Of a stretch of 64,000 nt of DNA, positions 22,501-44,119 are shown one piece after another. The position numbers and the translations under genes are program-made. The stretch is from contig CP154954.1 of the NCBI GenBank assembly GCA_039621445.1, forward strand, positions 46,603,847 through 46,667,846, read 5' to 3'. The notes beneath the pieces were generated by a model that saw only the letters and a list, made by a program, of their open reading frames with translations, made no database searches and was not told where the DNA came from. The DNA comes from Euglena gracilis (taxonomy: Eukaryota). How positions within the stretch are numbered: position 1 is the stretch's first letter; every line of letters starts with the position of its first letter.

Positions 22501-24266
22501 AAGTGTTGGTAACCCAGCGGTGCAGCATGTGTTTAGAAATTTTATTGCACCCAAATTTTCGGGGAAATCTCAGGATTGGCTGCAATTTTGTGAGGATTGG
22601 CAGGCGTTTTCAAGGAAACTGAATTCTGCAGGGGGGGAAGTGAGTGAAGATTTTAAAGTTGCTCTGTTGGAGGATTGTCTTGACGAAACGAGCAAAAAAA
22701 TTCTGAAGCTCCGTCTCAATGAAGGAGGGATAATTTTAATGCCGTTTAGGGTCACCTGTAAATGACATTTTCAGGGAATCAGGAAGGTGGGGCAAAACAA
22801 AGTTGGCAGCAGGTGAGCCTTTTTAATATGGGCAAAGTAGCCCTTGAGGACTGGCTTGAGTTTCAGGCAAAGCTCAATATGGCCAAGTGCAAGGTTAAGG
22901 ATGTCGGGAAGGGGGAAGCAAAACGACATTTGTTGCAGAAACTTCCCTCATTCATCCTAAAAAGGGTTTCATATGAGAGGAAAAGGAGGCTGAATAATCA
23001 GCCACCCTTACGCCTAACGGTGCCAGTGAATAGGATTCAGAAATGGTTTCGGACAGCTTGGGGAGAATGCTTGGGAAAAGACCCACAAAAGTGTCGGAAA
23101 TTCACGAGGGGCAATTCGAAGTCATTTTCCCTGACATTTCTGCCTATGAAAAAGTCAAAAGTTTTTATGGCAAAGGGTTTGACGATTCAATCGTTTTGTT
23201 TCAGGTTCAGGAAATTGAACTAATTTCGACCACCGAGGATATTTTCAACCTCGTGAAAACAAAGTGAACACTCAGAAACAAAAATGAAGCCTTGCAAAGT
23301 TGTTTTTCATCCCCAGGCTATCAAGGGTTTAGGCGTTCAAGATCGGTTGGCGCTGAAAAGTCGACGGGGAGACAATCGGGGAGCCGGAAGGGTATACCCC
23401 GGGTAGGGCAACGAAACCTCCCCCAACCAGAAGCAAATCACAAATCAGCGAAACAGCATAACCTGATCAATCTGTTGCGTTATAATCTTCAAATGTGCAG
23501 ACATCAAGCACTTCTTCAAGGCTGACAACGGTGGAGAACCCGGCCAATGGGCAAAGACCGGTGGTGGGGGGGGGCACAATGGATCCCACCCCCGTCACAA
23601 TCAACAACGCCCTATTTTGCTAGACAAGCCCCGTGGAACAGAAACAATTTTCAGCCGTATGACAAAGGCAGCCAAGGGAAAGGAGGGAACAATTCCCAGG
23701 GATATGGGGAAAATAACACCCAATGGTATGGAGGGAACCAACAGGGGTACAAGGGGAAGGGTGGTAAGGGCAGGGGGAGACAGAAGGTTATGACCAGAAT
23801 TTCAGTGTCAAAGGGGGGAATGGCAAGAACAATAACCCTACACCAACGATCCCCACCCCATGTACGCCTTTAGGGATGCTGGGGTAAAATTTATCAGGGG
23901 CTTAAAATCCCACGCAGTGAAACCCCCAACCCAGCTTCTAAACCCGACCCTTCCACCCATAAACACCAAACCACGGAAAATCGAACCACAAACCAAATGA
24001 CCGGGAGCGGAGCTTGGAGTGAAGACAAATTGGCTGGCCGAGGCCAGCGTGATGGAGTGAGGGAGCGGGAAGCCAAGACCCCCCGGAGCCAAGGAGAGCA
24101 GGCACGGCGAGGAGGCGGGCGAAGGAGGTATGAAGGGGAAGCGAATCCCCTCCCATTCCTTTCGCGTGCACATCCCTCCCAATTCAACATGCCAATACAA
24201 AACTATCATGATTGTTTGAGTGGGAATAGGTGGGCCTCAAACAAAAAGTTGGCCAGAAACTTTCCC

Positions 24267-24866
24267 AGGGAATTGGACCTTTATTCTGGGAGTCATTCAG
24301 TGGAAAATTGGTTGCAGGAAAAGCGTTATGAGGCGATTTCAGTGGACATCAACCCAGGTTTTCACCGAACCCATCCCGTGGACATACCTACCGTGGGAGT
24401 ATCGAGCATACCCCCCTGCAAACTCTGAGTTCATAACGGCATTTGTGCCTTGCACGGGGTACAGCCGTGCTAAGAGGTGGGAGAAAGAAATTTGGAGTGG
24501 CAGACCAACTTGTGACAATAACTTTGTTAATCGTGGAATGTTTTCAGTATAAAATATGGTGGATTGAAAATCCCCGAACGGGAGTTTTGCCAGAAAGGCA
24601 TTGTGTGCAACACTTGAATTTTATCGATGTGGATTATTGTCAATGTTCTGACTGGGGAGACCAAAAACCCACTCGGATTTGGGGGAGTGAAAATATGTTG
24701 AGTTTGAGAACAAACTTTGTGATGGGAAAAACCTGCCCGCATTTGATTGTGAGGGAAGGGGGTGGTTTGGTTCACAAAGAACAATTTGGAGGAAACGGAA
24801 TGAGGGTGAGCATTCAACAAATATGGGGGCCACCTGAAAAATTGGTTGAGTACCTTCTTTCGGTCC
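24267..24866 (+). pseudogene. DNMT domain, frameshifted (C3)
   Basis: LDLYSG, AFVPC, WIENPRTG and KPTRIW. Confidence 0.85.
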
Positions 24867-25417
24867 TTGATTTTAAGAAGAAAAGATTTTCCTTCAGGTG
24901 TGAGGATTACGCCGTTCGAAACTCATTTGTCCAAATGATCGAGGAGAATTTTCAAATGAGGGCCGAGAGGAGAATCTTCAAAGAAGGGCCGAGGTGGATT
25001 TTTTTGCTTCTACCCAAAATTCTCAGTGCACATCATGTTTGACCGAGAAGGGAAATGCTTTGGCGGTACCATGGGGAGGGGTGGGGCACGGTTTGGTTGA
25101 ACCCCCCCTTGGTCATTTTGGCCAAAGGTTGCAAGGAAATTGCGATTGCATCTTGCGTGATTGGAGCAAAGGTTGAGTAAGGCAATTTATCGGGAGGCAT
25201 CAAAAAGTTTTATTTTCCACCCAGAAGCAAGCTTTTTGAGGTGGATTGGAAACCAATGGGGGGTGTTAGGTGGGGAGTTTGGGCCTTGTTGATAGAGGGT
25301 AATAAGTCCCCCGCTATCACCGGCAACCCCAAGAAACCTAGGGTGGTACAGTTGAAGTTACGAATGGCTAAAAGGAGGTACCCACCCACAGGGATTGAGA
25401 AATTTTTGAAGGACCGA

Positions 25418-25814
25418 CAACTTTCGATTCGGACAAGGGTTGTTTTGGGGAACGGTGGGGAACAAAATATGGACATTTTGGTAGACACCGGTGCCGATGC
25501 TAACCTCATTAGGTAAGGGTTAGTGAGTGTGCACCTGATGTTTTCGGCCGAACACCCCTTGAGGTTTGAAACCACTAACGGTCAAGCCTTGAGTGGTGGG
25601 GGGAGGTGCACTAATGTTGTGATGAAGTTGCAAGGGGAGGTGAGTGATAACACACCACCCACATATTTTGAGTACGATGTGGAATTTTATGAAGCCAATA
25701 TCAAAGTGGACGTAATTCTATCATACCAATGGCTTGTACGTACAAAAATCGGAGTTTTTCCACATCACCGTGCCTTGGTAGTGGAGGAACCGGAATTGAC
25801 ATTTTTGTTCGGAG
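25418..25814 (+). pseudogene. Aspartic protease with in-frame stop (C3)
   Basis: ILVDTGADANLIR followed by TAA. Confidence 0.85.
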
Positions 25815-26602
25815 TGAGAGAGCACAGGAGAAAACGGCAACAAAAAGTCCCTTGCACCCTACCCCAAGGAGGGGGTGTGACAAATTTGAAAAAGTTTGGC
25901 TTTCACCTTCCGATGGAGGGTTGTGATCAAAGGGTAAAAGCCTTGGACGAAGATTCACTCAAAAATTTGGGCAGGAAGTTGGAAACTGCAAGTGAAAACC
26001 CCCTACCAATTCGCAAAATGATCATTGCAAGGGATGGGGAGGGTAGTAAAGAAACGGAATCCGAAGAGGAGGAGATAATAATAATGCTAAGAGACGAAAT
26101 TTTTGGAAGGTATGATGGAACCGTATTTCGGTCTAAGGAACAACCCGACCCACCCGTAAGAGGACCATATGGTTATGCATTCATACCTTTGCAAGAAGGA
26201 GCGCGGCCTACCCGACAAAAACCATTTTTCATGCACGGGGAACGAAAAGAAGCTTTATAAAAAATCACTCAAGATTGGACCGATATGAAATTCATCGAGC
26301 CAGCCACAACAAAACATTCAGAACGGCTCTCACAAACATTCCCCGTGCCCAAAAAGTCAGCCGATTTTCCTTGGAGGGGGTTGTTGACACGAGGGGACCC
26401 AACAGCCAATCCAGTAGATGCAACCACCGCCTTCCGAAAATCGAAGACATCCTGGTGAAGCATTGTGCAAACCAGACGTTCTCATTTTTGGATTTAAAAC
26501 AAGCCTTCCACCAACAGCCGCCTTACCCAGATAGCTGGCCTACTATAACTTGCTCCTTCACACCAAAGGGTTTTTACCAATGGAGGGTGAATGTAATGGG
26601 GT

Positions 26603-27053
26603 TCTGGCATTGGACATGTCCCTACCTTTCAGATGAATTAGGCTTCGCCAGGTAATGCACGCGTGCTGGTCATTTTTTTTCTGTACAGTCAGACCTCATG
26701 AGTTGATTGCTGGGCCCATGGGTCGTAGCCCCCTGGCGTATATCAGGATCATGGGACTGACTGAAGGTTTGGATATTTGAGTTTTTTGCTGTGGCTGAAG
26801 TTTGAAGAATTGAAGTAGAAGTTCAATTCTTCAAACTTCAGCCACAGCAAAAAACTCAAATATCCAAACCTTCAGTCAGTCCCATGAGTTGCCAATGGGT
26901 GGGAATCGAAGGCCCAAGGCGGAAGGCGAAGCAAAGGTATCACAAAACCCAAGGCGAAGCCGAAGTTAGCCAAACAGGGGGCCCGGAGTCGGGCAGCTAA
27001 AAATGTGTGAATTGCGAAGATAGCCCCCTCCCAGGCGCCGCCCCGGTTTTACA
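26603..27053. mobile_element. Solo-LTR-like insertion (451 bp) in RT with 4-bp TSD GGGT
   Basis: GGGT at 26599-26602 and 27054-27057. Ends TTTTACA and starts TC here but TG in C1/C2/C4. Removal restores ATG GGG TTA ACT AAC (MGLTN). Confidence 0.85.
26749..26887. repeat. Perfect inverted repeat, 66-bp arms with 7-nt spacer
   Basis: 26749-26814 is the reverse complement of 26822-26887; spacer GTAGAAG. Confidence 0.95.
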
Positions 27054-28795
27054 GGGTTAACTAACGCCTCACAACAAATACAACAAATGATGGATGACCG
27101 TTCAGCACCTGTAAGGATTATTGCCACCCCATACATTGATTACATTTTGGTAAGGACTACTTTCGGGGAGGGGGAGGATGTCCTCGAGGCAAACAAAAGG
27201 GTTTTGTGTATGGTTTTGGATTTACTCACCGAGGAAATTTTTGTAGTGGACTCCAAAAAAGCGAAACTATTCATCAATGAAGTGGAACTTTGTGGCCAGA
27301 TTTTTGGGGCATGGCACGCGTTGGCCGGCCCCCGGCAAATTACGCGCCATTGAAAAATGGGAGTGTACCTACAACCTTAACGGCATTAAGGGCTTTCCTT
27401 GGCTTCACAAATTATTACAACACCTACATACACATGGATGCACAAGTGGCGGCACCTTTGCAAGATAGTTTAAAGGTGTCTCAGGAGGAAGGCAAGAAAG
27501 GGAGCAAAAAAAATGCGTTGAATTCGGGGAGGTTGCACACAAAGCATTTGAACAGTTAAAGAAGTGGTTTTTTTCCGGATTAATTCTTCAAAGGGTAGAC
27601 CCCCATGGACCCTTTGCTTTGAGAGTTGATGCGAGTGGGTATGCCGTAGGACAAACTTTGGAACAACTCAAAGAAGGAAACGGCACCCCCCACCCTAAGG
27701 TACTTTGGAGAAGAAAACGGTGCTTGTTGCTTTTATGTCCCGAAAACTCACCGCGGGGCAAAGAAAATGGACCCCCCTGGACCTGGAGACATATGCCATA
27801 ATTTTGGCACTCCAAAAGTGGGAGAGTTGGATCGGTCTGCAACCCGTTTTGGTGTTGACCGATAACCAAAGTTTTGGGGCATGGGCAAAGGAAATGCTCG
27901 ACACCCAAAGTGGACCGGTGGGGAGGAGGGCACGATGGCACCAAATTTTCTCAAAATGCGACTTGAAAGTGGGGTACATTCCGGGGAAGGAAAACACTAT
28001 CGCCGGCATTTTAATTCGGTGAGCGCACCCCGAGTCGCACGCTTTAAGGGACATTAGTAAACACGGATCGGCTGAGGATAAGAGGGAAATGGAGGAGCTC
28101 ATAAGAGAGGAGAGTGAAGATGAGAAAAATTGCTTGTTGGTCAAGTTCAAAAATCAGCCCATCGCTCGTAACATGTGGATAGGGGGGGGGGGTAACCCGC
28201 AGTGGAAAAGAGGTGGCACCCAATTTTGTGGATGATGCATCAGGGAGGGGTACCGACAGTGTAGAGAGTCCGGGAGGAATAAGCACCACCGAAGACGCTC
28301 ACTGACAAGGGCCTAGGGATTTTTGGTTCGAAAAACGGTAAGAGAAGAGTTACCTTTTGGGATGGAGTGGTCCCTGCGGGAAATTTGGTGACTAGCCCAA
28401 AACTTCCGCCTAATGAGTTACCGAGGGGGAGGGACGGAGAAGGTGTGGCCAACTCCAAGTGCAACCCCCAAGCTAACAAAATGAGTTTGGGAGAGAGATT
28501 GGGTAGTAACGTGTACCGAATGATCTACTTGGAAGGAAATTTGGCTAGCAACTCAAAATGACGGTGAGTGGCCAAATGGTGTGAAATTTCACAAAGACAG
28601 TAAAAAAATATGTTTTTTGAGGAGAGGTTGTGTGTTCCACTTTCTTTTCAAGAATTAATTGTGCAAGAAGTCCATGAATTCTTGGGACATGTTGGTCCCG
28701 AAAAAGTGTGGAATTTAATCATTTTGCGGTACGCGTGGGCTGATGAAAAAAGGGCACTTGTTTTCAACGAAAGCTGTTCCAAAAATTGTGTCACG

Positions 28796-29884
28796 TGTTT
28801 CACACCCGTGCTGCCATGTCCCCCGGCAGCACTGGGGTGAAGTGGAAACCCCCGCCCCGGGCCAGTTTCCGGCGTAGGATCGTTTTTTGGCTCCTCGAGC
28901 CGACTTGTGTCGGAAATTTTTTCCCATTCTGGCCCCCCCTGTGGCCGAAACTGGGCCATCATTTCCAAGGAGGAACTTCCCAGTGGACCCTCCCCGACCC
29001 CTGAGGGGGGTGTCACTGGGATCTCCAAGGGGGGTGCCTTTGGGGTTTCAACCCCTCCCTGCTCAGCTGAACCAGTGAGAGCCAACACCCCCCCTGGGTG
29101 TCATTTCTCACAGTTTCTGGGCCAAAAAGGGGGTTTTGGGGTGAAAAATGGCCTGTGGTTGCCTGAGTTGAGGAGTCCCTCCCCCCTGCCCCTTTTCCCA
29201 CAGATGAGGTGGGGGGAAGACAAACCTCACCTTCTTCAAATGACTGATTGTTTTGTTGATCTTCCATTTGCAATTGAAATTCCAAATTCAATACTTGATT
29301 GTAATTGAATTGCCACAAAAAGTACAATGGTGCAACCGTTAAAGAGGAAAACCCTGTGAAAAGAAAGTGATTTTGATGCCCTTGATGGGCAGTTAAATTT
29401 AGGATTGAGTGCGCTGATTCCTAAGCGCTCTCAAATCCCAAATCCTTGCCCATTGCATCAAAATCAACCAACCCAGGTCAAAATCAAGGTTCCCCCCCTT
29501 GATTTTGATAAATTATGCTGAATTCCATCATTATTGAGCTTTGCAAATCCCTACAAAAACTCCAGGAACTCAGGCGCCAATCTCAGAAAAATCTGTTCCA
29601 ACCGCCTGCAAGCGCTCTCACCAAATCCAACATTTTCCCTTAAAACCAAAGGAAAAATGCAAAAAAAGCTTAAAAATATGCTAAATGGACCCAAAATGAC
29701 CATTTGGGAATACCTAGCGTCACTCAATCTCTCTCCTTGCACAACCAAACCATGGGCGCCCTAGGAGAGGGAATTTTAATGGAAATCTTTAGAAAGCCTT
29801 AAAATTAGAGCTAAACCGCCCTTAAAAAGGCCTTCTAAAGAGGAAAAACTCCGCCGCCCGGCGGTCGACCTCAAAAGGTCGTCA
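28796..29884 (-). repeat. 3' LTR of element B (1089 bp)
   Basis: TG...CA termini and near identity to 40772-41862 (about 20-25 differences counted by eye). Confidence 0.95.
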
Positions 29885-29892
29885 CTCCCCCC
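29885..29892 (-). promoter_or_regulatory. Short polypurine tract of element B
   Basis: GGGGGGAG on minus directly abuts the TG of the 3' LTR. Confidence 0.8.
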
Positions 29893-30244
29893 ATTGCGAC
29901 GAAAGTCGGGGGTTTCACCCCCCCCTCCTTCTCGCTTTCCTTGGGATGGGAAGGAAAGACACTTTGAATTTTTGCAACGCAATTGCGACAACATTGTTCG
30001 GCAACGTGCATAGGTGGTGGCGTAACGGTGAGGAGGAATCTATAACCCATAGATCCCGTTCCACCACACCGAGCCCCCCCCCCACGGTTTTCACCACCGT
30101 GAAGGAAATGGGGGCCCAACACCACTCAAAAAAATCCTTTCTTGCATGGATAAAAATCAGCCCCCCCCCACGGTATTCCCAACCGTGAAGGGGATGGAGG
30201 GTCCATTATCACCAAAAATCCTTTCGGTGATAGATGAAAATCAG

Positions 30245-30535
30245 CCCCCCCCCCGAGGGGAAGGCCTTGGGGAAAAGCTTGCCCCCCCCCCGGTGAGAGG
30301 AGGGCTTGACTTGCCCCCCCCCCCCGAGGGGAAAGACTTGGGGAAATGATTCTCCCCCCCCGGTGAGAGGAGGGCTTGACTTGCCCCCCCCCGAGGGGGA
30401 AGACTTGGGGAAATGATTGCCCCCCCCCCCCCCTGGCGAGAGGTGGGCTTGACTTGCCCCCCCCCGAGGGGAAAGCCTTGGGCAACCGCCCCCCCCCCCC
30501 AGGCAAAGGGAGGGCTTGCCTTGCCCCCCCCCGCT
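30245..30535. repeat. ~60-65-bp minisatellite (about 4 copies) with long C/G runs in the 3' region of B
   Basis: Unit approximately Cn-GAGGGGAAAGACTTGGGGAAATGATT-Cn-GGTGAGAGGAGGGCTTGACTTG. Confidence 0.85.
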
Positions 30536-31802
30536 GGCTGGGAGGTTGAAAAAGACAATTCATTACCTTTTTTTTTTAGAAGAAATAACATAGCCCCCCC
30601 CCCCCCCGATCAAGCCGACCGGGGTTTCGGGCTCCACTTGCCCAAAGGTGGGGGGTATGATTGTACAACCCAATCAAACCGATTGGAGAAAAGGACTCCC
30701 CCACGACTGTCACCGACCCGTGAGCAGGGAGAAATGAAAAATTACAGATTCCTCTTTCTTGAAAACAGGTGCGAAAACAGGTGTAGTGGTCAGAGCGAGT
30801 TGCAAACGGCAGACGGCAAAGTTACCATCTCCGCATGTTCATACATCAACTCCACCTCCTCGTCCATCAATACCAAAAATCAGCTGCTTCAGGCTTGTTG
30901 ATGGACCTGAGTAGGCAGACGAAACGGGACCACACCAAAAATACAACCAAAATCCCAATAATACAACAATACACCATCACCAATGGATAAATTCAACACC
31001 ATGACGGTGGACGGGCAATAATGCCCCCAAGTGGTGATGGTCGCCAAAGCCATTGACTCGACAATTTTTGTTGTTGTTCAAGTCGATGGGCTTCGGCGTC
31101 TTCCTTGGGTGCCGGTTTGCCTTCCCTTAGTGTGGTGGCAAACCATGCACACCGAAAATTTAGCAATGTGGCTTAGCCCAGCCAAACCGACGGGGCAACC
31201 TCAAAGCCACATTGTTATTAACCCCCCCTCCAATACTTGGAGAAGGTTGTCAAAAGAACAAACCCTCGGTTGTGCTTCCGGTGGTTTGTCCTCTTTAAGA
31301 ATTTTTGGTGAAACTTCCAAACCGGAATCCACCCACAACAACATAAACAAAACGGGTGGCAATCATGCACTCATTCAACGTTTCGCTTTTGTTGTTGTTG
31401 GCAATCTCCCTTCCCGTTCCAGGGTGGGATCCTTTGTTTGGAAATCACCCACCCGTGCAAAAAATAAGATCCCGGGCTAGTTTCCGCCTAGCCACGAGAA
31501 TCTTTCGTTCACCCGTGAAATCATTTCACGGGAGTTCAATGGAAAATGACAGAAAAAACAACGGGGCAATGAAATATCCTCGATTGCCCACACCATTCTC
31601 ACCCAAACCAGGGTGTGGTGGTGTTTGAAGATTTCAGGGAGAAATAAAAAATGAAATCAATGACGAGGAAACTCCCGTCATTTTCCCAGGGCCTCAGCCC
31701 TGTGATGGTGTCCACCTGCATCTGTGAAGGGGCATAGAGTGGGACCTCCCCCTCCCCAGGCAACCACCCCGGGCCCTTTTCACCTCTCCTTTCCCCCTTT
31801 TC

Positions 31803-32720
31803 TCAGGTTGCCGTTGCCTTTAAATCCTTAGAGACATCCAACGGCAACACTTTTCCCAGGCAATACGCTATTACGTCACTATTATACTCCTGGAAAAAAT
31901 GTTCCACCGGTTCCCAATTCTCCTCCTCAAACCCTTGCCACTTCGTTAAGAAAAACATTTTTCCCTTAACGAACTTGTGGTTTAGGATTTTATCCACTAA
32001 CCAGGTATCTGAGGCACCTTCCGCCTCAGGTACCGTCCGCCGGTGGAAAAATAGGGGGATAGGCTTATCAGATGTGGGGTCCTCCACATACACCTTCAAA
32101 GCCTTCCGATGGGCCTTCATAATATAGTCCGGTTTAACCTCAATTAGGTAGGAGTGAATTCCCTCCCTCGCGGTAACCTTGCAAGGGCCCAACCAACGGG
32201 AATCCAATTTTGTGCCACTATCGGGGGGTCTCAGGTACCACACCAGATTCCCCACCTCCAATGGCTCCCAACCGTCTAAACCACGGTTGGCCCGAGCACA
32301 TTGCTTGGCATGCAAATTATTCATTTTGCCAGCCACTACCAAATCAGTTTCTCTTTGCCGAGAGAAAAATGATCTGGCATCTTCACAATCCCTTAACGGT
32401 TCATAAGGTAAACCACCCAATGAACGGTGTCGACCGAACAAGATTTGAAATGGGCTTAGGCCACTCTCCCCCGGCGTATCATGGATACGGTCTAGTGCTT
32501 GGGGGAGGGCTTCAACCCAATTCAACTTGTCCTCAACCTGAATTTTCTTAAGCCGTTCCATTATTTGTTGGCCAGCCCTCTCCGCCCTACCATTAGCCTG
32601 GTGATGGTAGGCCTGGGAATAGGCTTGCCTAATTCCCATCAAGGCACACATTGTCTGCCACCAACCGGCGACAAAATGTGAGCCTAGATCGGAAGTAATA
32701 ATGGATGGGACACCAAAGGT
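31803..32720 (-). CDS. pol: Integrase catalytic core/C-terminus plus chromodomain (element B)
   Basis: FGVPSIITSDLGSHF, ANGRAERA, KLDSRWLGP (GPY/F-like). Chromodomain WLVDKILNHK...FLTKWQGFEEENWEPVEH at ~31860-32003. Separated from upstream pol by a 1-nt frameshift at ~32723. Confidence 0.92.
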   Translation of the reverse strand, partial: TFGVPSIITSDLGSHFVAGWWQTMCALMGIRQAYSQAYHHQANGRAERAGQQIMERLKKIQVEDKLNWVEALPQALDRIHDTPGESGLSPFQILFGRHRSLGGLPYEPLRDCEDARSFFSRQRETDLVVAGKMNNLHAKQCARANRGLDGWEPLEVGNLVWYLRPPDSGTKLDSRWLGPCKVTAREGIHSYLIEVKPDYIMKAHRKALKVYVEDPTSDKPIPLFFHRRTVPEAEGASDTWLVDKILNHKFVKGKMFFLTKWQGFEEENWEPVEHFFQEYNSDVIAYCLGKVLPLDVSKDLKATAT

Positions 32721-34144
32721 CTCCAAGCATGCAACAGCATTTGCTTGGCTGCCTTGGCTCCCGTAAATCCTTTTGCTAGGTGGGGGATCGCCACTATCCA
32801 ACCGGAGTGACGATCCACACACACAAGCATGGAGTCGTAAGAATTGCCTTCCCACTCCACGAGAGGCATGCTAAACATGTCAAGGGCCACCGAATACATT
32901 ACGGCTGGGGGTATGGGTGTAGATTCCACTAAACCCTTAAGACTCGCCGGCCTTCGGCACGCTTGGCAAGTCCCACAAAGGCCCATGACTCCTTTAGCAA
33001 AATCTCGAGCGAGTGAGGAATCAGCCCAATCATACCTAAGGGACATGCATTCCCATAGCCTTGGGAATCCCACATGCCCTTGGTATGAGTGGTGATCTCG
33101 AATGAGTTTTTCTTGGAGAGATTTGGGCACACAAAGCCTCTCCTCGAAAAACATTTTGTCACCAAAAACTTTGATATTTTCAGGCCACGGCACCTTTGAA
33201 TCCTGGGTAGCGTGAAAAAATGGTGACCAACGGGGACATTTTAAATATTCCTCCCTCCACGATAAATACCACACAGAACCAGGGGGGATGGGTGAGGAAT
33301 CGGTTGTAGAAGTGGCTTCCCCACCCTCACCACTCAAACCACCTGAAGACAACACAGGTGATTCTCGGTCTGCCCCAGGTACCTCAGTGGTAGCCGCGGC
33401 AGCAGGGTCAGGGGTTGGCGTCGTTGGCGAAGCTGGTATAGAAGTGGGTGTCAATCGAAAATGCTCCCCCCTTGGCTCTTGGACCTCCTCCACAAGACTT
33501 GTCTCATTCCCAAACTCGTCAACCCGAGTTGAGAATGAAACATGTTTTCCTTTTTCTCCCTTGGGGGTGGAGGTTGAACCCAAACCCTGGGGTTTTGTTC
33601 CTCCAAGTGGTTCTGACTTCCTATCCCCCGGTCGTGTGCACCGTCCACTCGCGTCCCCGGACCCCGTGGTAGCACCACCCCGTGTGGTGACTCCACGAAT
33701 GTATGTGTTGGCTGTGGTTGGTTGGTCCACCAACCGTAGCCACATACATTCGGCTTCCTCCATTTTTTCGGTTTGAATGATTTCCCTCATTTCCTCGGTG
33801 TCAAGGGCTGACCCATGCCTTGAAATGTCCTTCAAGGCTTGGGAGGCCGGGTAAGCCCATCTCGACAACAAATCGGCTACGGTATTCTCCCGCCCCGGGA
33901 TATACCCAACCGACAGATCAAATTTTGATAAAATCTGATGCCACCTAGCCCTTCTCCCAATGGGACCACTTGGTGTGTCTAGAACCTCTCTAGCCCAGGA
34001 TTCTAGAGCCTTGTGGTCCGTGAGAACCAGGACGGGCTGCAGCCCAATCCATGATTCCCACTTTTGTAAGGCTAGGATTATGGCATAAGTCTCCTGTTCC
34101 CTAGGTGCCCAGTTTCTTTGGCTGCCCGTTAGCTTCCTACTCAT
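32721..34144 (-). CDS. pol: RNase H C-terminus, low-complexity linker and integrase Zn-finger/N-core (element B)
   Basis: REQETYAIILAL, LTDHKAL, NTVADLLSR, HHSYQGH...CGTC, VALDMF. Confidence 0.92.
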
Positions 34145-35674
34145 GAACTCATGAAGGCGACAGGCACGGTACGCTTGGCCCGTACGTCTTCAGGAGTAGG
34201 AGCCCTGTCCTCCCCAACCAATTGTTCAAGGGTGGCACCAACCGCATACTGGCTGGCATCCACTCTTAAAACAAATGGTTTGTCTGGCTTAACGTGTTGT
34301 AAAATTAATTCACTGCACAACAGTGATTTAATTTTTTCAAATGCCTCAATGTCGGATGGTTCCCAAGAAATTCTTTTCTTGGAACCCTTCTTGCCGTCCA
34401 CTCGAGAAACTTTGAGCTTATCCTGAAGGCAAGCGACAATGTGGGCATAATCCTTCACATAGGAGCTGTAAAAATTTGTGAACCCCAGAAAAGCACGTAG
34501 ACCCGTGATTGTTTGGGGTAGCTCCCATTTTTCAATGGCCATAAGCTTTCCAGGGGATGGTTTTCTCACCCCACCACCCAGAACATGGCCACAAAACTCA
34601 ACTTCTTTTACGAAAAGACGGCATTTTCTTTTGTCAGCTACAAATCTGTCTTTTCGTAAAACTTCAGGGACTCTTCGCAAATCCTTGTCGTGTGCTGCGA
34701 GTAAATCCTCACCAGGACCCACTCGAGCTCCAATCAAAATGTCTTCGATGTAAGGATCGGCCACGTCCCCCACCGGGAAGAGGCGATCCTCCATCATTTG
34801 CTGAAACTGCTGGCTTGTGTTTGTTAGACCCATCACATTAACCCTCCACTGAAAAAGACCGAGGGGGGTACTGCAACATGTGATGGGCCGGCTTTCCGGG
34901 TCCAACGGCTGTTGGTGGAAAGCCTGCCGTAAATCCAAGATGGAAAACATCATGTTTCCACCTTGTTTTACCAGGAGGTCTTCAATTACGGGAAGGGGGT
35001 AGGACACACGCCTAGTTTGACTGTTAGGCCCCCGCATGTCTACCACTCCCCTCCATTCGCCTCCTTTTTTTCGGCACCACAAATGTTACGGACAGCCGTT
35101 TTGAAACTGTTCCCTTGGGCAAACGCTCAACAAATTTCCGGTCCCACCATTCCTGGGGGACCTTTTTGTGAGCTTCAAATCTTTCACCGTGTAAGACAAA
35201 GGGTTTTTGCCGTGTGGGTACAGCCCCCTCCTTCAGAGGAATCTGGGCGTAACCATAAGGTCCCCGAACGGGAGGGTCGGGGGGTACCTCCGTACCCAAC
35301 ATCTCCCCTTCAAAATCCTGAAAAATTTTATCCCGAAATGCTACCACCCTGGGGTCCTCCTTCTCACCCGAGTCGCGAGCCTGGATTATGGCATTCACTG
35401 CCTTGTCCTCGGCTGGCGATTCGGTGAGATGCTTGGCTATGGTATGCAATTCCTTCTTGCCAAGGAATTTTGGTTGCATATCAAAGCCTTGCAAGGGTAG
35501 GTGCAAATTCATTTTTTGCAGGTCCAACCACACTTTTTCATTTTCAAGGGACTCCGTGGTTGGTGCGTTTTCAGGGGATTCTCCGAAGTCAGAAACCACA
35601 ACCCCAATTCTTTTTTGTGAATTGTGTTTTTTCTTCCCCTTATGGGATTTCCGTTTCTGATTTCTTGATCCCAC
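34141..35674 (-). CDS. pol: Reverse transcriptase and RNase H N-terminus (element B), frameshifted
   Basis: PPVRGPYG, WRGVVDMRGPN, LDLRQAFHQ, VMGLTN, YIED (catalytic YIDD altered), LRAFLGFTNFY, VDASQYAVG. ORFs 35024-35674 and 34141-35082. Confidence 0.93.
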
Positions 35675-35689
35675 CCGTTCAAGAAAGTC

Positions 35690-36070
35690 AGATTAGGATT
35701 GTCAAAAACCAAGGCCTTATGGTGTGGGAAAACACCCAAACCATGTTCGGCTAACCATGGAAACGATAATATAGCATCTACCTCAATATCCGCGAGGTAG
35801 AATTCCCCTTCGAGGTACAAGGCCTGGGTGCCCCCCTGCCCCGTACCCCTACGTTGAAATCCCAACTCCAACTTAATACACTGGTCGCCCCCCAAAACAC
35901 ATTGGCCGTTGGCAGCCACCAGCCGAACTGGCATTCGCGGTGACCTGGCCAAATGTCTTGGGACGATGGACCTTTTGACCAGGTTCACCTGGGCTCCCGT
36001 GTCAACCAAAATTCTGAGCTGCCTGGCATCTCCGTTAGGGAGATACGTCTGCAATAGCATCAAAAGTTGC
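35690..36070 (-). CDS. Aspartic protease domain (element B), in the same ORF as the DNMT
   Basis: ILVDTGAQVNLV (DTGA at 36003-35992) and VDAILSFPWL in ORF 35509-37236. Confidence 0.92.
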
Positions 36071-36213
36071 AGCTCGTTTTCAATGTGCAACACCTGATTA
36101 ACCTTCAAGGTGTTGGCCAGATGACAGCAACGGTCTGGAATTTCCCATTCCTCAAAATGCTGGGAATTTTGGGAAATTTCTTTGGGCTGGCCCCCCAGGA
36201 TATCCCCAGCACT

Positions 36214-36807
36214 TAGGAGATAATCAATCACCAGGGGGGTTATCCTTCCTTTTTGTCGGGCGGTAAACTTCATTTTTCTGCCCCCCAACAATTCACGGTG
36301 CCGGAACTGCCCATTGTCCCCCATCACCAGGTAAGGGCACGATTCGCCATCACACAACACCGACCGTAATTGTGAAATGGCTGGGCAGCACCAAAAACGT
36401 GTGGGCTTTTTATAACCCCAATCTGAAAACTGACAATAATCAATGTCGATATAGGGCAGGTTTTTCACCACCTCCCTATTTCGCAAAAGACCAGTGCGGG
36501 GGTTCTCCAACCACCACAACTTGGGCTGAAAATAATTTATAATTTCCAGGGCTTTCTCCACCAGGGCATCCGCCTGGGAGAAATCCCTTGGTCTGGGGTT
36601 ATAAGCCGTGGAATAAATATTACAGGGGGGACTAGCGGCAATAACCTCAAAAAATCCAACCGGGTATCGCCTGTAGTCCCAGGTCAAAATGTCTGTGTGG
36701 GGGTGGAAGTCCGTCCAAGGAGCATTTTCAATTGACAAAACTTCATACCCCCGTTCTGCCAACCGCCTCCTCACTGAATCTGTGCCAGCAAATAAATCTA
36801 ATGCCTG
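36214..36807 (-). CDS. C5 cytosine DNA methyltransferase domain (~198 aa), uninterrupted, fused N-terminal to the protease
   Basis: Motif I ALDLFAG, II LSIE, III TDI, IV IAASPPC (36633-36622), VI WWLENP, DYCQF...YKKPTRFW (VII-VIII-like) and a C-terminal motif X-like RITPLVIDYLL. Confidence 0.92.
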
Positions 36808-37081
36808 AGGTCGCTGGGCTGATGGTGGGGAGTTGGGCTGTGGCAGGTTTGTATGCAAAATGGGAACCCTTGAACATTTCCCTTCCCTCCAGGAGTATCG
36901 GGTCCGATTCAAAAATCTGGGGGGCTGATCCAAAGAATGTTTCTCACCACACCCCGAATCAGCCATAAAATCCTGTACACCCCAGTTTTTTGAATCAGAA
37001 ATATTTACACCGTTTTCCTCACAGGGGGGAGAGACACGGCCATGGGCAGCCCCCCCCCTTCTCAAACTGCCCCTGGCCCCC

Positions 37082-38588
37082 CTATTGGGCCCCAGGGGGA
37101 GAAGAGGTGGGCCCACCCCCCTTTGACCATGCACCCCCCTTGCCTGAGGAATTTCGCTGAGTGGTTGGCTGCCCTTTACCCTTGGGCTGCCCCTTGCCTT
37201 TTCCATTATTTTGCCAAAAATCCTTAGATTTAGCAAGGGCCTGACTCAGCGGTTTATCACACTCATAAAAATAATGTCCGGGCTCCCCACAGTTGAAGCA
37301 TGGATATGGGGACCTGCCCCTACCCGATGCCTGCGGGGTCCAGGTCTTCCACCCCTTGCCTTGCCGGGCTGGGGTACTGGACTTTGGGTTCGCGACCGAC
37401 GAAGAAGGAGACCTGCCCCGCTGGGCTGACTGGGCTGGCCCCTTATCTCCCTTTGGAGCTGGCTGTGAGGCAGATTTTGAGGTGTGACCCTGCCCCCCGG
37501 CTGCTGGTGCTGACATGGATGTTGGGGACACCGGGGGGGTCTGGCCTTTTTCCAACACCTGTATTTTCCCCGAGCCTTTTGTTGTCGATTTGCTGAATAA
37601 TCTGGGAAAATGGTGCTGATTCAAAGCCAAATCCTGCTTCTCCCGAAGAGCTAACTTGCCCTCGGCAAAAGCAAACATTTCCTCAACAGTCATTAGTTGT
37701 TCCACCAATTCGGCGTTGAGGAAATTTTCCATTCCCTGCAATTTCCTTCCATTTACGGCTGTTAATTTCAGTGCCTCTTCCGAAGAACTGAAATAAATAA
37801 GGCAAATGTCACCAGGGTTTTTGATAACCAATTTCCGTGGATCAATCCCCCCAGTGATCTGGCTCACACTCCTTTTTCCCATCCACCGTGGGATTTGGTA
37901 TCCCTGTGAGCCTGACAATGGGTTGTTTACGGGCTCGATTATCCTCCTCTTTTATGCAAAACTTGCTTAAAAAAGGAGGAATTCTTTCCAAGAATAATCT
38001 CCGAGCCTCCCCGGCTGTGGCATCCTTAACATGGTGCCAGGCACTGCAAAAATTAATCCAAAATTCTTGCAGATCCGCCCGGGTTATTTTTCCTTCGTTA
38101 ACCATGGTTACCTCCTGCCATATTTTCCGAGCCGTCAGCCCCTTACTCGAGGCATAACGGTTCTGGAATTGGGCCAATATGGTGGGGTAACCTAATTTAG
38201 CTCCATTCAGCCGATAGAACCTTATTTCCTCCCGGAATCTGGGTCCTAAACATGCCTCAAAAACCTGCAGCTTTTGCGAATCAGAATACGGTTTGCCTGA
38301 TGTCAACCTATCCCAGTAAAGATTCCAATCTACTTCAAAATCTTGCCAGGAAATGCTGCCCGTTTCATCAAAATAGGGCTTAGCACCTCCCTGCAAAATT
38401 TCGAAAGCTACTGGGTCACTGATAAAAGGAAAACCCAACCCGTGACCTGGGTTGGCTGCAGCCCCCCCCTGTCCCGATGGGCCTAATCGAGAAAGCAGGG
38501 GCTGCGGAAACATGTGGGGGGACACACAACGACACACAAGAAACCACTGCCGTGTCTTGCATGTCCTCCAAAACAAATCCCCCCTCAA
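37082..38588 (-). CDS. gag: Gag core of element B: capsid-like region, RRM-like segment, CCHC zinc knuckle and KG-rich tail (one frameshift at ~37880)
   Basis: KPYFD...SWQDFEVDWNLYW homologous to Gag of C. CFNCGEPGHYFYEC at 37300-37259. Ends in TAG at 37084-37082. Confidence 0.85.
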
Positions 38589-41241
38589 TAACTAAGGGAG
38601 GGGAAATGTTTGAACCTGCAGATTTATTTTGCAAAACATTCAGATCTGAAAAAGATGGGTCAGCACTGGGCACCGTGCTGGCCAGTGAGCTGGAAGGCTG
38701 CCCCAGGGGCTGCTGCGGTCCAGCCGACGGCAGGCCCAGCCCCCTTGGCAGCCCGTGAGCAGGCTGCGGCTGGCCTGCTGGCTGGCCAGGCTGCTGGGCT
38801 AGCTGGACGACGGGCTGCTGGGCCAGCTGCTGCCCAGGCTGTGGCAGCTCCACTGGGTGTAGGGGCTGCTGGCTGCCCTGCCGCAGCCACCACATGTCAG
38901 AAATTTTCTGCAAAACTTCTCTCGGTTCTGCAGTTGGATGTACGGGTCCATTTTTTTGTAAATCCTGCAGCACTTTCTGTAACTCGAAAGTATTCCCCCC
39001 AACTTTTGCAAGTCCCTGACTGAATTCCTCCACCAGCCCACCAAATTTTATCTCCTGGGAAAAAATCTGCTGATAAACACTCTGAAAATTCTGCTGACAA
39101 TCCGTCAACAGTTTTTGCATTTCTGAGTGCCGTTTCTCTACTTCATCTGAAATATTCTGGTGCAGTTTTTGAATACCCCCACCAAAACCATGGAGGGCCG
39201 TATTCATTGCTGAATTTTGCTCACCCAGCTGGCGAACATAATCAGCGAACTGCTGGAGCCGCTGAGCCTGGCCCTGGACCGTACTACGCAGCGATACCAG
39301 GTCAGCGCGAAGTTCAATGATTTTGGCAGCAACAACGGCCAGCTCCTGGAGAGTTTCTGCCTCCCCCCCCTGAGCGGGCTGGGCGGCTTTAAACTTCTCA
39401 GCAAACCGCTGAAATTTTTCAAGCACGAGATCCTTAATTGGTAAGGCAGCCACCTGATTTTGCACTTGTTTAAAAATTTCCTGTGGCAGGCTGTCCAAAA
39501 TTCGTAAAAAATTTTGCCTCAGGGCCAAAAACTGATCACGGCTCGAAGAAAACTGCTGGGCCAGTTTTTCCTCAAAACTTTTTTCCTGCCCGACAAAAAG
39601 TTCAGGTGCCTGTGCGTCAATTTTTTGCACAGAAATTTGCACCTGGGCCTCACATTTTTTCTCAAAAAGTTCAAAAATATGGAGGCAGTCAGCCCTGGCC
39701 GTTTCTTCGATTCGTGCAGCTATGTGCTCGACCAGGTGGTTGTCGACAGCGGGGGGTTGTTGCTGCTGCTGCTGCTGCAGAACCCACTCTTCGTTGGCTT
39801 TTTCCAAAGCCAAAACCCGAAAAGTCAGGTGCTGCACAGTCCGCTTGAGGTCTCTGTTGCTTTGTAAAAATTGCCCCCAGGGGTCTTCAAATCCCTGATT
39901 TTGTGAACCCCCCCTGGGGGTGGCTTCAGAACTTTCATAGGCTGGGGGTTGGACCTCCTCCTCACCCCCCTCGATGAAAATATGAGGATGCTGGGGGCCT
40001 GCAGCAGCTGCTGGCTGACCGTGATCAACCTCACGGTGCAGCCGTTTTTGCTGAACTTCATCACTACCTGGTGATGAAGCTGGTGTTCGGGGTCGCCGAG
40101 TAGAAGTAGAGCTTGGCTGGTCCTTCGGGTTTTCCTCTGCCTGCTCGACTTCTGCTCCGACCCGTTTGCTGCTGTCCCAGTTATTATTATCGTTTAAGCC
40201 CAGCACATTGACATGTGCTTGCTTTTCAAAGAAAACTGGGCTGGTGTTATCACCCCCCTGCCCTGCCGAGGCACTTGCCGTTTCCTTCACCAGCCCATCT
40301 ACCTGGGATGGTTGGGAAAACTGCAAAAATGCTACCGGCTCTTGGGCTGGTGTTGAAGAAACTGGTTGAGCTGGAGGCAAAGGCAATGCAAAAGCGGGTA
40401 ATGATGGCAGATTCCCTAAATTTTGTACCCACGAAAAGTCTGGGAGAGGTTGCAACTCAGGCAGCATAAAACCGTACCCCATATTTTGCAAAGGAAAAAC
40501 CCCTGAAAAAGGCTCTGGAAAACACGGTTGGTTGGAAATGACAACCTGGCCATCCCCACCCTGAAATACCAACATCTGTCCCATATTTGTGGGGGTTCTG
40601 AGTTCAGCCAAACTGGTTTCGGGTCCCAACTCCCTGTTCCCCGAAACTCCAATCGTCAGATTTGCCATCTGAGATTGGGCCATTGGCTGATCATCAAAGA
40701 AAACATTCTGAGCAGGGATTTCCAACCCAAAATTTCCGACTGAAGGCTGAAGGATCAACCTCTGCTTACCATGTTTCACACCCGTGCTGCCATGTCCCCC
40801 GGCAGCACTGGGGTGTAGCGAAAACCCCCGCCCCGGGCCAGTTTCCGGCGTAGGATCGTTTTTTGGCTCCTCGAGCCGACTTGTGTCGGAAATTTCTTCC
40901 CATTCTGGCCCCCCCTGTGGCCGAAACTGGGCCATCATTTCCAAGGAGGAACTTCCCAGTGGACGCTCCCCGACCCCTGAGGGGGGTGTCACTGGGATCT
41001 CCAAGGGGGGTGCCTTTGGGGTTTCAACCCCTCCCTGCTCAGCTGAACCAGTGAGAGCCAACACCCACCCTGGGTGTCATTTCTCACAGTTTCTGGGCCA
41101 AAAAAGGGGGTTTTGGGGAGAAAAATGGCCTGTGGTTGCCTGAGTTGAGGAGTCCCACCCCCCTGCCCCTTTTCACACAGATGAGGTGGGGGGAAGACAA
41201 ACCTCACCTTCTTCAAATGACTGATTGTTTTGTTGATCTTC
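38416..41241 (-). CDS. Long N-terminal ORF1/Gag extension (Q/P-rich, predicted coiled coil) starting within the 5' LTR
   Basis: 882-aa open frame 38416-41064. The upstream MEDQQNNQ start (~41241) is in frame in the LTR copy at 59064-60153 (ORF 58916-59596). Confidence 0.75.
40757..40771 (-). promoter_or_regulatory. Primer-binding site (tRNA-Met-like)
   Basis: TGGTAAGCAGAGGTT immediately follows the LTR-terminal CA and resembles the initiator-Met PBS TGGTAGCAGAG. Confidence 0.8.
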
Positions 41242-41862
41242 CATTTGCAATTGAAATTCCAAATTCAATACTTGATTGTAATTGAATTGCCACAAAAAGT
41301 ACAATGGTGCAACCGGTAAAGAGGAAAACCCTGTGAAAAGAAAGTGATTTTGATGCCCTTGATGGGCAGTTAAATTTAGGATTGAGTGCGCTGATTCCTA
41401 AGCGCTCTCAAAACCCCAAATCCTTACCCATTGCATCAAAATCAACCAACCCAGGTCAAAATCAAGGTTCCCCCCCTTGATTTTGATAAATTATGCTCAA
41501 TTCCATCATTATTGAGCTTTGCAAATCCCTACAAAAACTCCAGGAACTCAGGCGCCAATCTCAGAGAAATCTGTTCCAAGCGCTTGCAAGCGCTCTCACC
41601 AAATCCAACATTTTCCCTTAAAACCAAAGGAAAAATGCATAAAAAGCTTAAAAATATGCTAAATAGACCCAAAATGACCATTTGGGAATACCTAGCATCA
41701 CTGAATCTCTCTCCTTGCACAACCAAACCATGGGCGCCCTAGGAGAGGGAATTTTAATGGAAATCTTTAGAAAGCCTTAAAATTAGAGTTAAACCGCCCT
41801 TAAAAAGGCCTTCTAAAAAGGAAAAACTCCGCCGCCCGGCGGTCGACCTCAAAAGGTCGTCA
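40772..41862 (-). repeat. 5' LTR of element B (1091 bp)
   Basis: TG...CA, followed by the PBS and flanked by TSD CACG. Confidence 0.95.
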
Positions 41863-42388
41863 CACGTGCCAAGCAAGTTCAAGGCGGGAGACTTTGAAGG
41901 GACCCATATATTCAACACCCATTCCACCGGCACCCATGGCGAGTGTGGCCTTAGATGTTTTCAAAATGCCATTGGCAAAGTATGAGGGGGAAAAGTACAA
42001 TACCATGGCGGTGTGTGTTGACCGGCACTCCGGTTGGATCGTGGCCATACCGTTTTTAGAAAACGCTCAAACATTCGGGGGCTTTTCGGATTCCTTCAAT
42101 CATTTCTAGTGACCAAGGGAGTCATTTCGCGAACACATGGTGGCAAACCTTGTGCTCATTTTTGGGACTTCGACAAGCTTTTTCTCAAGGCTACCACCAA
42201 GAAGCCAACGGGCCGGTGGAAAGGGGGTCAACAAGTAATGCAGATTTTGACGAAATTCTTTGTGGACGGAAAAATGATTTGGGTTGAGGCTCTACCCCAA
42301 ACCTTGGACAGGCGTCTTGATGTGAAGGGGGAGTGTGGTTTTAGCCCACACCAAATTATGACCGGTATGAAACGTCCCTTTGGGGGGG
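41863..42388 (+). pseudogene. pol: Continuation of element C integrase, degraded and truncated by the duplication junction
   Basis: TCQAS...STPIPPAPMASVALDVF...VCVDRHSGWIVAIP and WVEALPQTLDR. Joins KNCV at 28795. Confidence 0.9.
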
Positions 42389-43216
42389 GGATATGACCGC
42401 CTAGGAGCCCTATCCGGGTATGAGCAGGATATGAGCCTGCCCCCCCCCTTCCACACCTCTCCCATCTGCTTTTCAGCGATTCGCTTGACCAACCCCGCGT
42501 GCCTTTGGCACACCCAAAGTGGGTGGATGGGCCACTTTGTCAGGAAACCTGCCAAGCCCCGTTTCCCACAGTGGGCTTTTTTACACCCCACCTAAGCCGA
42601 AACGGCTAATAGGTAACCGCGAAACGCGGCTAACCTTTTGCACGTTTTTGGGCTTTGGGTGGATGCCACTGTGCGGAAAGGAGAGACACCGAATGGAGAA
42701 GTGAACCCCACCTGGGGCAGCGTCAGATATCCTGACTGGACTGGAAATCCTGGTCCATGAAGGAAATCGGGCGTAGCCCTGGGAGGGGGATGTGTACCAG
42801 GCACGTCCCAGCTCTGTAGGATATCTGCAGAGTGGGTTCTGTGACGGTCACACCACTGTGGAAAACCACAGCTGGTAGGATCGTGGCAGACCCTTCTGGG
42901 ATCTGCCACTGGACGCGTCAGCACTTTTCTCTCCTTCCCCCAAAGGTGGTATTCTTCACTGTCATCACTTCCAAGTTTGACCATTGGTTTTGTCAGAGGG
43001 AAAAACCCTCGGAACAGTCGAACTTGATCTCAGAAGAAACTTCTGAGTCTTTGCTTTGTGCTTTGCTTCTTGGGGAATTGGGAAGAAAAGGGGAAAACCA
43101 CTTTTCGTTACTCCAAAGACTTTTCCCTACCATAAGTAGGCTGCGCACCAAGGCGAAAGCGAAAGGCTTTTACAGAAAGTCCCAAAAAGGGGAAAAGGGA
43201 AAGCTTTGGACGTACA
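42389..43216. repeat. Repeat family A, partial copy 3
   Basis: Near identical to 5960-6787, including the CTGGAGG flank. Confidence 0.9.
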
Positions 43217-44119
43217 CTGGAGGTTGGTTGTCGTTTTGCGAGCATCCATTTGGACCCGAAAAGCCCTTGTACATCATATGTCGAACTCGAATTGAAGAAC
43301 GCCTTCACCTCATTCGTGAAAAGAAAGGGAAGAGAAAATAAAACTTTCTCTTTTTGGAGCTTTCTTCTTCCTCACCCACAACATCCGTCATCTAAGGAAC
43401 TGTGTACCAAGCACGATCCCAGTTCTATGGTTCGCCATAGAACAACTCCGTCACAATCTGAATTCGGAGTATAGTCTCAGAAGTGGGTGGGATTGTGGCT
43501 GAGCTTGGGGAAATTCGTTCACAACCATGTGTGATCACGCGACCTCCTCTGTGCAGGTGTTATTCTTTTCTTCGCTTGATTTCAAGTTTGATCTGTTCTG
43601 TGAAGTCCGGAAAGGACAGCCAAATCACTTGGCATTATTTGTTGTAGCCCATAAGGCTCTTTCGCCTGCCTTGTGCTCTGCTGTCTTAAGTGGGGGAAAG
43701 GGCTTTACTACTTTTCAACAAATGTATTATCTTATTTTTTTTGTTAAGCATTGACTCACTGAACAGGTAAGCCTCCTTCCCAGCGTGTGTCACACCCATC
43801 GGTGTTCGTGTCGAGTAATCATCCCCCCGCCCAATGGGCACCCCCACACCCATCAGCGTCCACCTCTATAGAGTTACCCAATGCCCAACAGGCACAAGCC
43901 CTTTTGTTAGAAAGCCGATCAGCTATCAGCTATTCCCCCCGAAGGAGATCTCGCACTGGTGCCGATAGGCACATTTGACTATAAGGAGGATGCGCCACGA
44001 CAACTTTTTGTCAAGGGTGGGTTATAAACGCCGTGTTTTTTCCAACCCCTCCCCATGCGCTTCCCTTCACAAGTCCAATAGAACAAATGCCAGTACCACC
44101 TGATGCGGATCATTTTTCT

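Follow-up and report, generated by a model that had tools for sequence, protein, structure and literature searches.

The stretch 31803-36807 of a 64,000-nucleotide region of the Euglena gracilis genome (this whole region is referred to here as the window) lies inside a Ty3/gypsy-type retrotransposon with long terminal repeats (LTRs), which occupies positions 28796-41862 on the minus strand. The element is probably a degenerate copy of chromovirus-like build, whose Pol polyprotein joined a C5 DNA methyltransferase (DNMT) of viral type to a group-I chromodomain, and intact members of its family would read histone H3 methylated at lysine 9 (H3K9me) and write 5-methylcytosine (5mC). A sequence-only reading of the stretch had proposed that a chromatin reader and a DNA-methylation writer are united in one polyprotein. 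This holds for unbroken relatives of the element (P0034 and others; P numbers denote related proteins and L numbers metagenome loci) and fails at the window locus itself, where pol is distributed over four reading frames.

Structure of the element and its two chromatin-related domains

The ends of the element emerge from a comparison of the window with itself, in which direct repeats at 28796-29885 and 40772-41863 are 97.8% identical over 1092 columns, with 22 substitutions among 1090 aligned bases. Read at base level, both LTRs start with TG and end with CA, and on the minus strand they form a 5' LTR at 40772-41862 and a 3' LTR at 28796-29884. The flanks carry a 4-bp target-site duplication, CACG, at 28792-28795 and again at 41863-41866. 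A primer-binding site beginning with TGG (40752-40771, minus strand) adjoins the 5' LTR, and a polypurine tract (29885-29895, minus strand) adjoins the 3' LTR. Between them, Pfam matches and collinear tblastn alignments with full-length relatives give the coding order upstream open reading frame (ORF), gag, DNMT, protease, reverse transcriptase (RT), RNase H, integrase and chromodomain.

All coding parts are on the minus strand. The gag region (37082-38591) is spread over two frames and includes a CCHC knuckle at 37259-37300 (zf-CCHC, E=3.1e-4). It is followed by a compact C5 cytosine methyltransferase domain of about 200 amino acids (aa) at 36205-36804, recognized by Pfam, a structural model and motifs, and by an aspartic protease (DTGA) at 35728-36018, which aligns with the proteases of P0034 and P0039. 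The RT (34552-35055; RVT_1, E=4.3e-15) has its catalytic box, YIED, at 34729-34752, and RNase H is found at 33842-34138 (RT_RNaseH, E=7e-15). The integrase (32565-33094) comprises an H2C2 zinc motif at 32957-33094 and a D, D, E core at 32565-32893 with a frame break inside it, and the HP1-like chromodomain at 31851-32009 is followed by a stop codon at 31803-31805. The element thus has the LTRs, target-site duplication, primer-binding site and polypurine tract of the Ty3/gypsy (Metaviridae-type) group, together with a CCHC gag followed by protease, RT, RNase H and integrase, and its integrase bears at the C-terminus the chromodomain that characterizes chromoviruses. Judged from its sequence, it is a Ty3/gypsy element of chromovirus-like build, an assignment that is based on architecture and is separate from placement in an RT clade.

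A chromodomain at the integrase end, with three aromatic-cage residues retained, had been predicted at 31860-32003, and both parts of this prediction were confirmed, with slightly wider borders. The Pfam Chromo profile matches the window domain with E=2e-4 and 21.7 bits, under its cut-off of 25.1. A phmmer search against chains of the Protein Data Bank (PDB) has mouse HP1beta (1ap0) as a match with E=2.1e-7, and a total of 51 different chromodomain chains fall within E<=1; in this search the domain is closer to HP1-class than to Polycomb-class chromodomains. The AF2 model, built from 13 family sequences, has three strands and a helix (pLDDT 91-93 at residues 31-60), and Foldseek aligns it with CBX1, CBX7, MPP8, HP1 and Rhino (TMt about 0.7-0.77, root-mean-square deviation (rmsd) about 2 Å).

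The cage residues are the W of WLVDKI (codon 32001-32003, the first of WLVDK at 31989-32003) and the W and F of KWQGF (31929-31943), which align with the Y, W and F of HP1beta EYVVEKV...KWKGF, residues that we take to be numbered Y21, W42 and F45. Across 11 aligned family members, the first and second positions are W in all 11, and the third is aromatic in eight and C, V or A in the others. According to the accessible text of PMC3605345, group-I chromodomains are those with an aromatic residue at each of the three cage positions (Y, W, Y in HP1), and these full-cage domains are linked to H3K9me reading. By that definition, since all three positions are aromatic, the window chromodomain is assigned on its sequence to the group-I, full-cage type.

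The evidence for the methyltransferase comes mainly from fold and motifs. The window copy matches Pfam DNA_methylase (PF00145) with E=1.9e-3 and 18.2 bits, under the cut-off of 22, which its relatives exceed, and a PDB profile search with the DNMT alignment gives weak matches to generic S-adenosylmethionine (SAM) methylases (E about 1e-4) and DNMT1 (E about 2e-3). The AF2 model of the domain is of high confidence (pLDDT 92.6, pTM 0.89), and Foldseek aligns it with the catalytic domains of DNMT3B/3A, DNMT1 and M.HaeIII at E about 1e-8. Motif IV reads SPPCN (36619-36633), motif VI reads WWLENP (36499-36516), and KPTR (36391-36414) holds the motif VIII arginine, all on the minus strand. In 27 aligned sequences of 40-56% identity, P70, C71, N111, P112 and R146 show no variation and E110 almost none. 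The domain therefore combines the features expected of a C5 methyltransferase, namely a class-I SAM fold, the Pro-Cys of motif IV, the ENx of motif VI and the arginine of motif VIII. A short stretch at about 36250-36390 (minus strand), with conserved C161, C166 and H179 (alignment A1) and the Cys of DYCQF, occupies the place of the target-recognition domain of larger enzymes and may be a small metal-binding element.

The retroelement family and the apparent viral kinship of its methyltransferase

Word-indexed searches returned 31 relatives of comparable size together with 14 that are longer, and an exhaustive HMMER search returned 2469 cluster representatives at E<=1e-3, of which 153 reached E<=1e-30. 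Among 11 proteins with both an integrase core (rve) and a DNMT match (P0034, P0036-P0041, P0043, P0045, P0046 and P0078), all 11 also match Chromo. Six unbroken ORFs of 1598-2513 aa (P0034, P0037, P0040, P0045, P0046 and P0078) each hold DNMT, protease, RT, RNase H, integrase and Chromo, and the metagenome locus L008 contains a 1373-aa ORF that spans DNMT to chromodomain.

In the window copy, pol passes through four successive frames. The breaks lie at 35600-35670, a region of A runs; at 35060-35066, within an A run; at 34139-34147, an 8-bp tandem duplication where every relative switches frame exactly; and at 32714-32717, a single-base length change (all minus strand). The gag and the upstream frame are mutually out of register, and gag is broken further. 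The RT box reads YIED; in the other family members, among them the closest relative P0033, it is YIDD, YVDD or FIDD. Contigs from four public sequencing runs, aligned to 31700-38700, show indel differences at or beside every frame break, with all of them present in one run, so the organism also possesses copies without these breaks. The source organism carries very many copies of the family, with 5487 and 5636 contig pieces from two DNA runs mapping onto 7 kb of the element. A leaf-litter metatranscriptome (run X20) covers 22 of 30 bins.

The set of DNMT-matching sequences numbers 194, consisting of 191 fetched proteins and three translations derived from the window. The neighbours of the DNMT allow 58 of them to be classified, the other 136 being too short or otherwise ordered. 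In type A, to which the window element conforms, DNMT is followed directly by protease (28 of the 58); in type B, DNMT is followed by a Dam-type adenine methylase (DAM; 14 of the 58); and in type C or probable type C, protease and/or DAM stand ahead of the DNMT (16 of the 58). P0041, P0043 and P0044 show a third order in which protease, DAM, DNMT and RT follow one another, and accessory domains have therefore been shuffled inside Pol, beyond mere gain or loss. P0129 (850 aa) lacks an RT between its DNMT and the integrase core and chromodomain that follow, possibly as the result of a deletion. A DNMT tree with 54 classifiable rows places the window element beside P0033 (84% identity) among the type A sequences, and on it type B requires at least two changes.

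The adenine methylase (PF05869) is carried by P0036, P0038, P0039, P0041 and P0043 and by a second element of the window, into which the element described here has inserted. No ORF of 28796-41862 gives a PF05869 match. The DAM segments of P0039 (residues 366-540) and P0041 find tandem units elsewhere in the window and nothing between the LTRs of the element, where the linker from DNMT to protease is about 60 aa. This matters for the relation to the EpiLTRs, which the accessible text of a preprint (Fernandez-Moreno et al., bioRxiv 2026, 10.64898/2026.05.21.726589) describes from Cymbomonas and Euglena as elements with DAM, DNMT and chromodomain. That text reports a screen for DAM and places the EpiLTR DNMTs as sister to DNMT4. 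By domain content, the type B and type C relatives, which carry all three domains, fit the description, and the window element does not.

Among predicted viral structures, the DNMT is matched best by a putative cytosine methyltransferase from Tetraselmis virus 1 that is 218 aa long (TMq 0.81, TMt 0.80, rmsd 2.7 Å, 29% identity, E=5e-18). The top PDB fold match, DNMT3B, is looser (TMq 0.61, rmsd about 7) and stands level with DNMT1 and M.HaeIII. A feature search of the ESM Atlas, which we treat as a lead only, again pointed to viral or prokaryotic clusters of small DNA cytosine methyltransferases.

Metagenome contigs yielded 332 confirmed DNMT relatives, the best 80 of which were analysed. Retroelement domains stand beside the DNMT in seven of these 80 (L003-L008 and L010), while L001, L002 and L009 are labelled as retroelements only by their shortness, high identity and GC content of at least 0.52. 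At the other 70 loci the DNMT stands alone, mostly on contigs of low GC content. Among the 38 stand-alone loci that are 5 kb or longer, a scan for viral genes covered part of the ORFs in 37 (all but L026). It found a Sputnik-type major capsid protein (E=4e-86) and a minor capsid protein on L062, capsid N-domains of the nucleocytoplasmic large DNA virus type on L030 and L024, D5/PriCT primase-helicases on L011, L033, L038 and L074, and collagen repeats on L042 and L075. The DNMTs of the loci with capsid or primase-helicase genes share 34-45% identity with the window DNMT and come from low-GC aquatic contigs. A quick tree built from 113 DNMT domains puts all 56 rows labelled as retroelements, together with L031 (short and unlabelled), on one side of a branch with an SH-aLRT support of 99; the tree is unrooted and does not give the direction of transfer. 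This topology is compatible with one transfer event, by capture or donation, that linked a chromovirus lineage with small eukaryotic double-stranded DNA (dsDNA) viruses, and the gene content of the contigs points to a gene common to such viruses and this clade of DNMT-chromodomain retroelements.

Proposed mechanism and competing explanations

In intact members of the family, a Gag-Pol product would be made through a frame change from gag into pol, whose frames overlap at 37082-37245 in the window copy, and the protease would free the DNMT inside the particle or the pre-integration complex. The integrase chromodomain would tether this complex to H3K9-methylated nucleosomes, so that new copies would reach repeats. 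The DNMT would deposit 5mC on the new cDNA or insert, and the copy would adopt the methylated state of its surroundings. Chromodomain-directed integration was reportedly described by Gao et al. in 2008. Targeting of silent chromatin combined with self-methylation is a reasonable and plausible hypothesis, because the architecture is conserved in the family and the full-cage type is tied to H3K9me reading. It also parallels proposals made in the accessible parts of PMC5890265 and of the EpiLTR preprint (10.64898/2026.05.21.726589).

Several observations weigh against this reading. The window copy is dead and cannot yield one polyprotein, given its four frame breaks in pol, the further breaks in gag and the altered RT box. 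Sequence-level evidence for the DNMT is weak when taken alone (Pfam under its cut-off, PDB profile E values of about 1e-3), and motif I, the FxGxG SAM loop of C5 methyltransferases, reads GTDS (F-A-G-T-D) in the window copy against GTGS in most relatives, N, H and K also occurring there. The dense nesting invoked in the sequence-only reading is reduced to one true nested insertion, the remainder being a 6.24-kb tandem array and a segmental duplication. A single insertion site is compatible with heterochromatin targeting and too few to test it. As for expression, the assignment of run X13 to RNA is conjectural and run X20 may contain DNA, and neither is counted as evidence of transcription.

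The evidence for methylation is indirect and divided. The observed/expected ratio of CpG (o/e) is 0.52 in the element, 0.54 in the tandem unit and 0.83 in positions 1-5600, with TpG/CpA at about 1.15 in the element, and the depletion extends through the window and is not peculiar to the element. In a comparison of the window copy with other copies, restricted to the best-supported 40 of 246 substitutions, 27 are transitions, and seven of these 27 fall at CpG, against 6.7% of positions, an enrichment that, like the CpG depletion, speaks for methylation. Relative to the family majority, the window copy shows no directional loss of CpG (four lost, three kept), and comparisons of the LTRs and of duplicated copies show no excess of CpG transitions (2/11, 3/14 and 1/18 transitions) and a transition:transversion ratio of about 1 or lower. 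The pattern is consistent with a methylated, repeat-rich region and is mute on the responsible enzyme.

The strongest competitor to the reader-writer model, which we regard as possible but distinctly less probable, is that the DNMT serves camouflage or self-restraint, and not a heterochromatin feed-forward loop, in a CpG-methylated genome while the chromodomain separately steers insertions away from genes. New cDNA, once methylated, would not be conspicuous as foreign, or the element would damp its own transcription. CpG depletion throughout the window (o/e 0.58) suggests broad methylation, self-methylation of retrotranscribed DNA is proposed in the accessible text of PMC5890265, and the genome of one EpiLTR host is heavily 5mC-methylated according to that of 10.64898/2026.05.21.726589. 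The sequence cannot separate a feed-forward loop, camouflage and self-restraint, and it gives camouflage no distinction over the loop model. We think it rather improbable that the chromodomain is an integrase accessory which binds cDNA or proteins and reads no histone mark, in which case targeting need not be to silent chromatin. Such a role is claimed for the Tf1 integrase in a title in the reference list of PMC3605345, and the third cage position is non-aromatic (C, V, A) in three of 11 relatives; however, the window domain retains three cage residues, the first two positions are invariant, and its nearest domains are the H3K9me-binding chromodomains of HP1, Rhino, MPP8 and CDY.

Comparably low is the probability that the DNMT-like domain is dead or acts on RNA or single-stranded nucleic acid in place of duplex DNA. 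The small size of the domain (about 200 aa) and the presence of no more than a very short stretch rich in Cys and His in the place of a target-recognition domain speak for this, as do a motif VI of ENP and not ENV and a motif I that departs from GxG in the window copy. On the other side, the catalytic Cys, the Glu of ENx and the conserved Arg are kept over 27 sequences at 40-56% identity, and the compact form is also present on contigs of dsDNA viruses and in an algal giant virus, for which a DNA target is the simple reading. Finally, the window holds nested and duplicated elements, and the EpiLTR preprint (10.64898/2026.05.21.726589, as accessible) warns of chimeric transposable elements in one host, so the pairing of DNMT and chromodomain might be thought an artefact of nested insertion or misassembly of two elements. 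This is hardly credible, as one LTR pair with its target-site duplication encloses one collinear string from gag through DNMT, protease, RT, RNase H and integrase to chromodomain, and the same order recurs in many unbroken ORFs of independent origin and on metagenome contigs L008 and L010. A chimeric or misassembled pairing was accordingly rejected for the family.

Going beyond the reader-writer model, a broader scenario can be offered tentatively. A group-I chromovirus may have captured a compact C5 methylase of virophage or giant-virus type once and become the ancestor of a large group of DNMT-chromoviruses, active to this day, whose members would read H3K9me and mark their own new copies with 5mC; the published EpiLTRs would then be no more than offshoots in which DAM was gained or lost at least twice on a DAM-less backbone. 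If this were true, the clade would be a self-contained mobile reader-writer module able to seed and extend islands of methylated repeats like that of the window. Transposons that bring their own chromatin reader and methylation writer make host silencing and parasite strategy hard to tell apart. Should the DAM-less DNMT-chromoviruses be active, they would represent a minimal two-domain system with clear catalytic and cage residues, which could test whether an element sets the epigenetic state of its insertions and biases later ones. The apparent kinship of the DNMT with virophage-like and giant-virus methylases would link retroelements with eukaryotic dsDNA viruses, and a DAM-less group would broaden the published EpiLTR picture, which, by the accessible preprint text, was built from DAM searches.

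Surroundings of the element and comparison with known systems

Upstream of gag, a long ORF (38416-40771, minus strand; 886 aa from stop to stop) extends into the LTR and has only weak coiled-coil Pfam matches. It is glutamine-rich and coiled-coil-like and is not in frame with gag. Neither the fetched proteins nor the metagenome loci nor the tandem units include a relative of it, and it may represent either an additional gene or an extension of gag in this sub-family. The 3' untranslated part (1.9 kb) contains tandem repeats rich in C/G runs, with periods of 84-86 and 67, at 30072-30533. Rfam gave no match anywhere in the 64-kb window.

The element sits in the integrase of a plus-strand type B element, exactly inside the CxxC of its zinc motif. 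Both flanks match one segment of P0039, the left one up to residue 119 and the right one from residue 121 onward. This host element, a DAM-bearing relative, provides RT, RNase H and the integrase zinc motif up to the insertion point at 27051-28795 and resumes at 41863-42388 (plus strand). A second copy of the same insertion with the same flank, truncated by the window end, lies at 59064-64000 (minus strand). It is a segmental duplicate and not a second insertion, because the left flank and the fourth frame break are held in common. Positions 23915-33718 and 54185-64000 are 98.9% identical over 9.8 kb, and 5960-17646 and 42389-54079 are 98.5% identical; this higher-order duplication, some 30-36 kb long, includes the tandem array as well as the nested DNMT element with its flanks. 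The junction at 42388/42389 joins the middle of the host-element integrase to position ~356 of an LTR-like repeat.

The 6.24-kb tandem array comprises five copies, 94-100% alike, three in 8065-26771 and two in 44508-57040. Each unit (plus strand) holds gag, DNMT, a degenerate DAM, protease and the start of RT, which is the 5' part of a related element, and only the last unit continues into the rest of RT, RNase H and integrase. The DAM of the units gives a weak PF05869 match with an altered catalytic tetrapeptide. The unit gag aligns with the N-terminal part of the element's gag at 26-28% identity (E 1e-16 to 1e-18), and the unit DNMT falls in the type B group of the DNMT tree; with the window element in type A, two lineages of the superfamily therefore meet in the window. 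As far as can be seen, the array is an internal amplification of a retroelement and apparently does not have an LTR-internal-LTR arrangement. A 1.2-kb repeat (1-1181, 5605-6787 and 42389-43216; 93.6-93.9% alike) brackets a GC-rich 4.4-kb stretch at 1182-5604, which has a GC content of 0.55-0.59, a CpG o/e of 0.83 and proline-, lysine- and glycine-rich ORFs with no Pfam family. Together with its bracketing repeats, this stretch may be a non-autonomous element that has LTRs in common with the host family.

The combination of DNMT and chromodomain in LTR elements is already in print in the 2026 preprint. On the sequence comparisons made here, what appears to be new is the DAM-less form, the position of the DNMT upstream of the protease, and the compact, viral-type DNMT. 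No published description of a DAM-less DNMT-chromovirus was found in a literature search whose coverage of subscription journals and preprint supplements is incomplete, and PMC8226279, PMC9998398 and PMC12344493 hold nothing on a family of DNMT-chromodomain retroelements.

Compared with the EpiLTRs, at the level of the accessible preprint text and not of their sequences, the window element is likewise a Ty3/gypsy-like LTR element with both a C5 DNMT and an integrase chromodomain in its Pol, but it has no DAM, and its DNMT precedes the protease, whereas that of the Cymbomonas EpiLTR lies at the 3' end of pol. With group-I chromoviruses such as MAGGY, as treated in the accessible text of PMC3605345, it shares a chromodomain at the integrase C-terminus with three aromatic cage positions; it differs in the added DNMT module, the long upstream ORF and a cage of W/W/F in place of Y/W/Y. 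Relatives of the element also show sub-threshold Pfam matches (19.6-25.3 bits, cut-off 30) to a Tf2-1-like SH3 domain before the chromodomain. The compact C5 methylases of Tetraselmis virus 1 and of virophage- or polinton-like contigs resemble the window DNMT in size (about 200-220 aa) and fold, but are free-standing genes, whereas in the window family the methylase is a domain of a retroelement polyprotein.

Other retrotransposons with a cytosine methyltransferase in their Pol ORF were reported by de Mendoza et al. in 2018 (PMC5890265), whose accessible text describes DNMTs in LINE and DIRS elements of Symbiodinium and in a Gypsy element of Klebsormidium, demonstrates that such retrotransposon DNMTs carry out de novo CG methylation and proposes that they methylate their own cDNA; the word 'chromodomain' is absent from its main text. 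The elements KnitGypsy-Dnmt3, SymbioDIRS-Dnmt3 and SymbioLINE-Dnmt thus share with the window element the placement of a cytosine methyltransferase within the retrotransposon Pol ORF. The DNMTs of KnitGypsy and SymbioDIRS are of Dnmt3 type, according to the same source, whereas the window DNMT best matches a giant-virus methylase of 218 aa.

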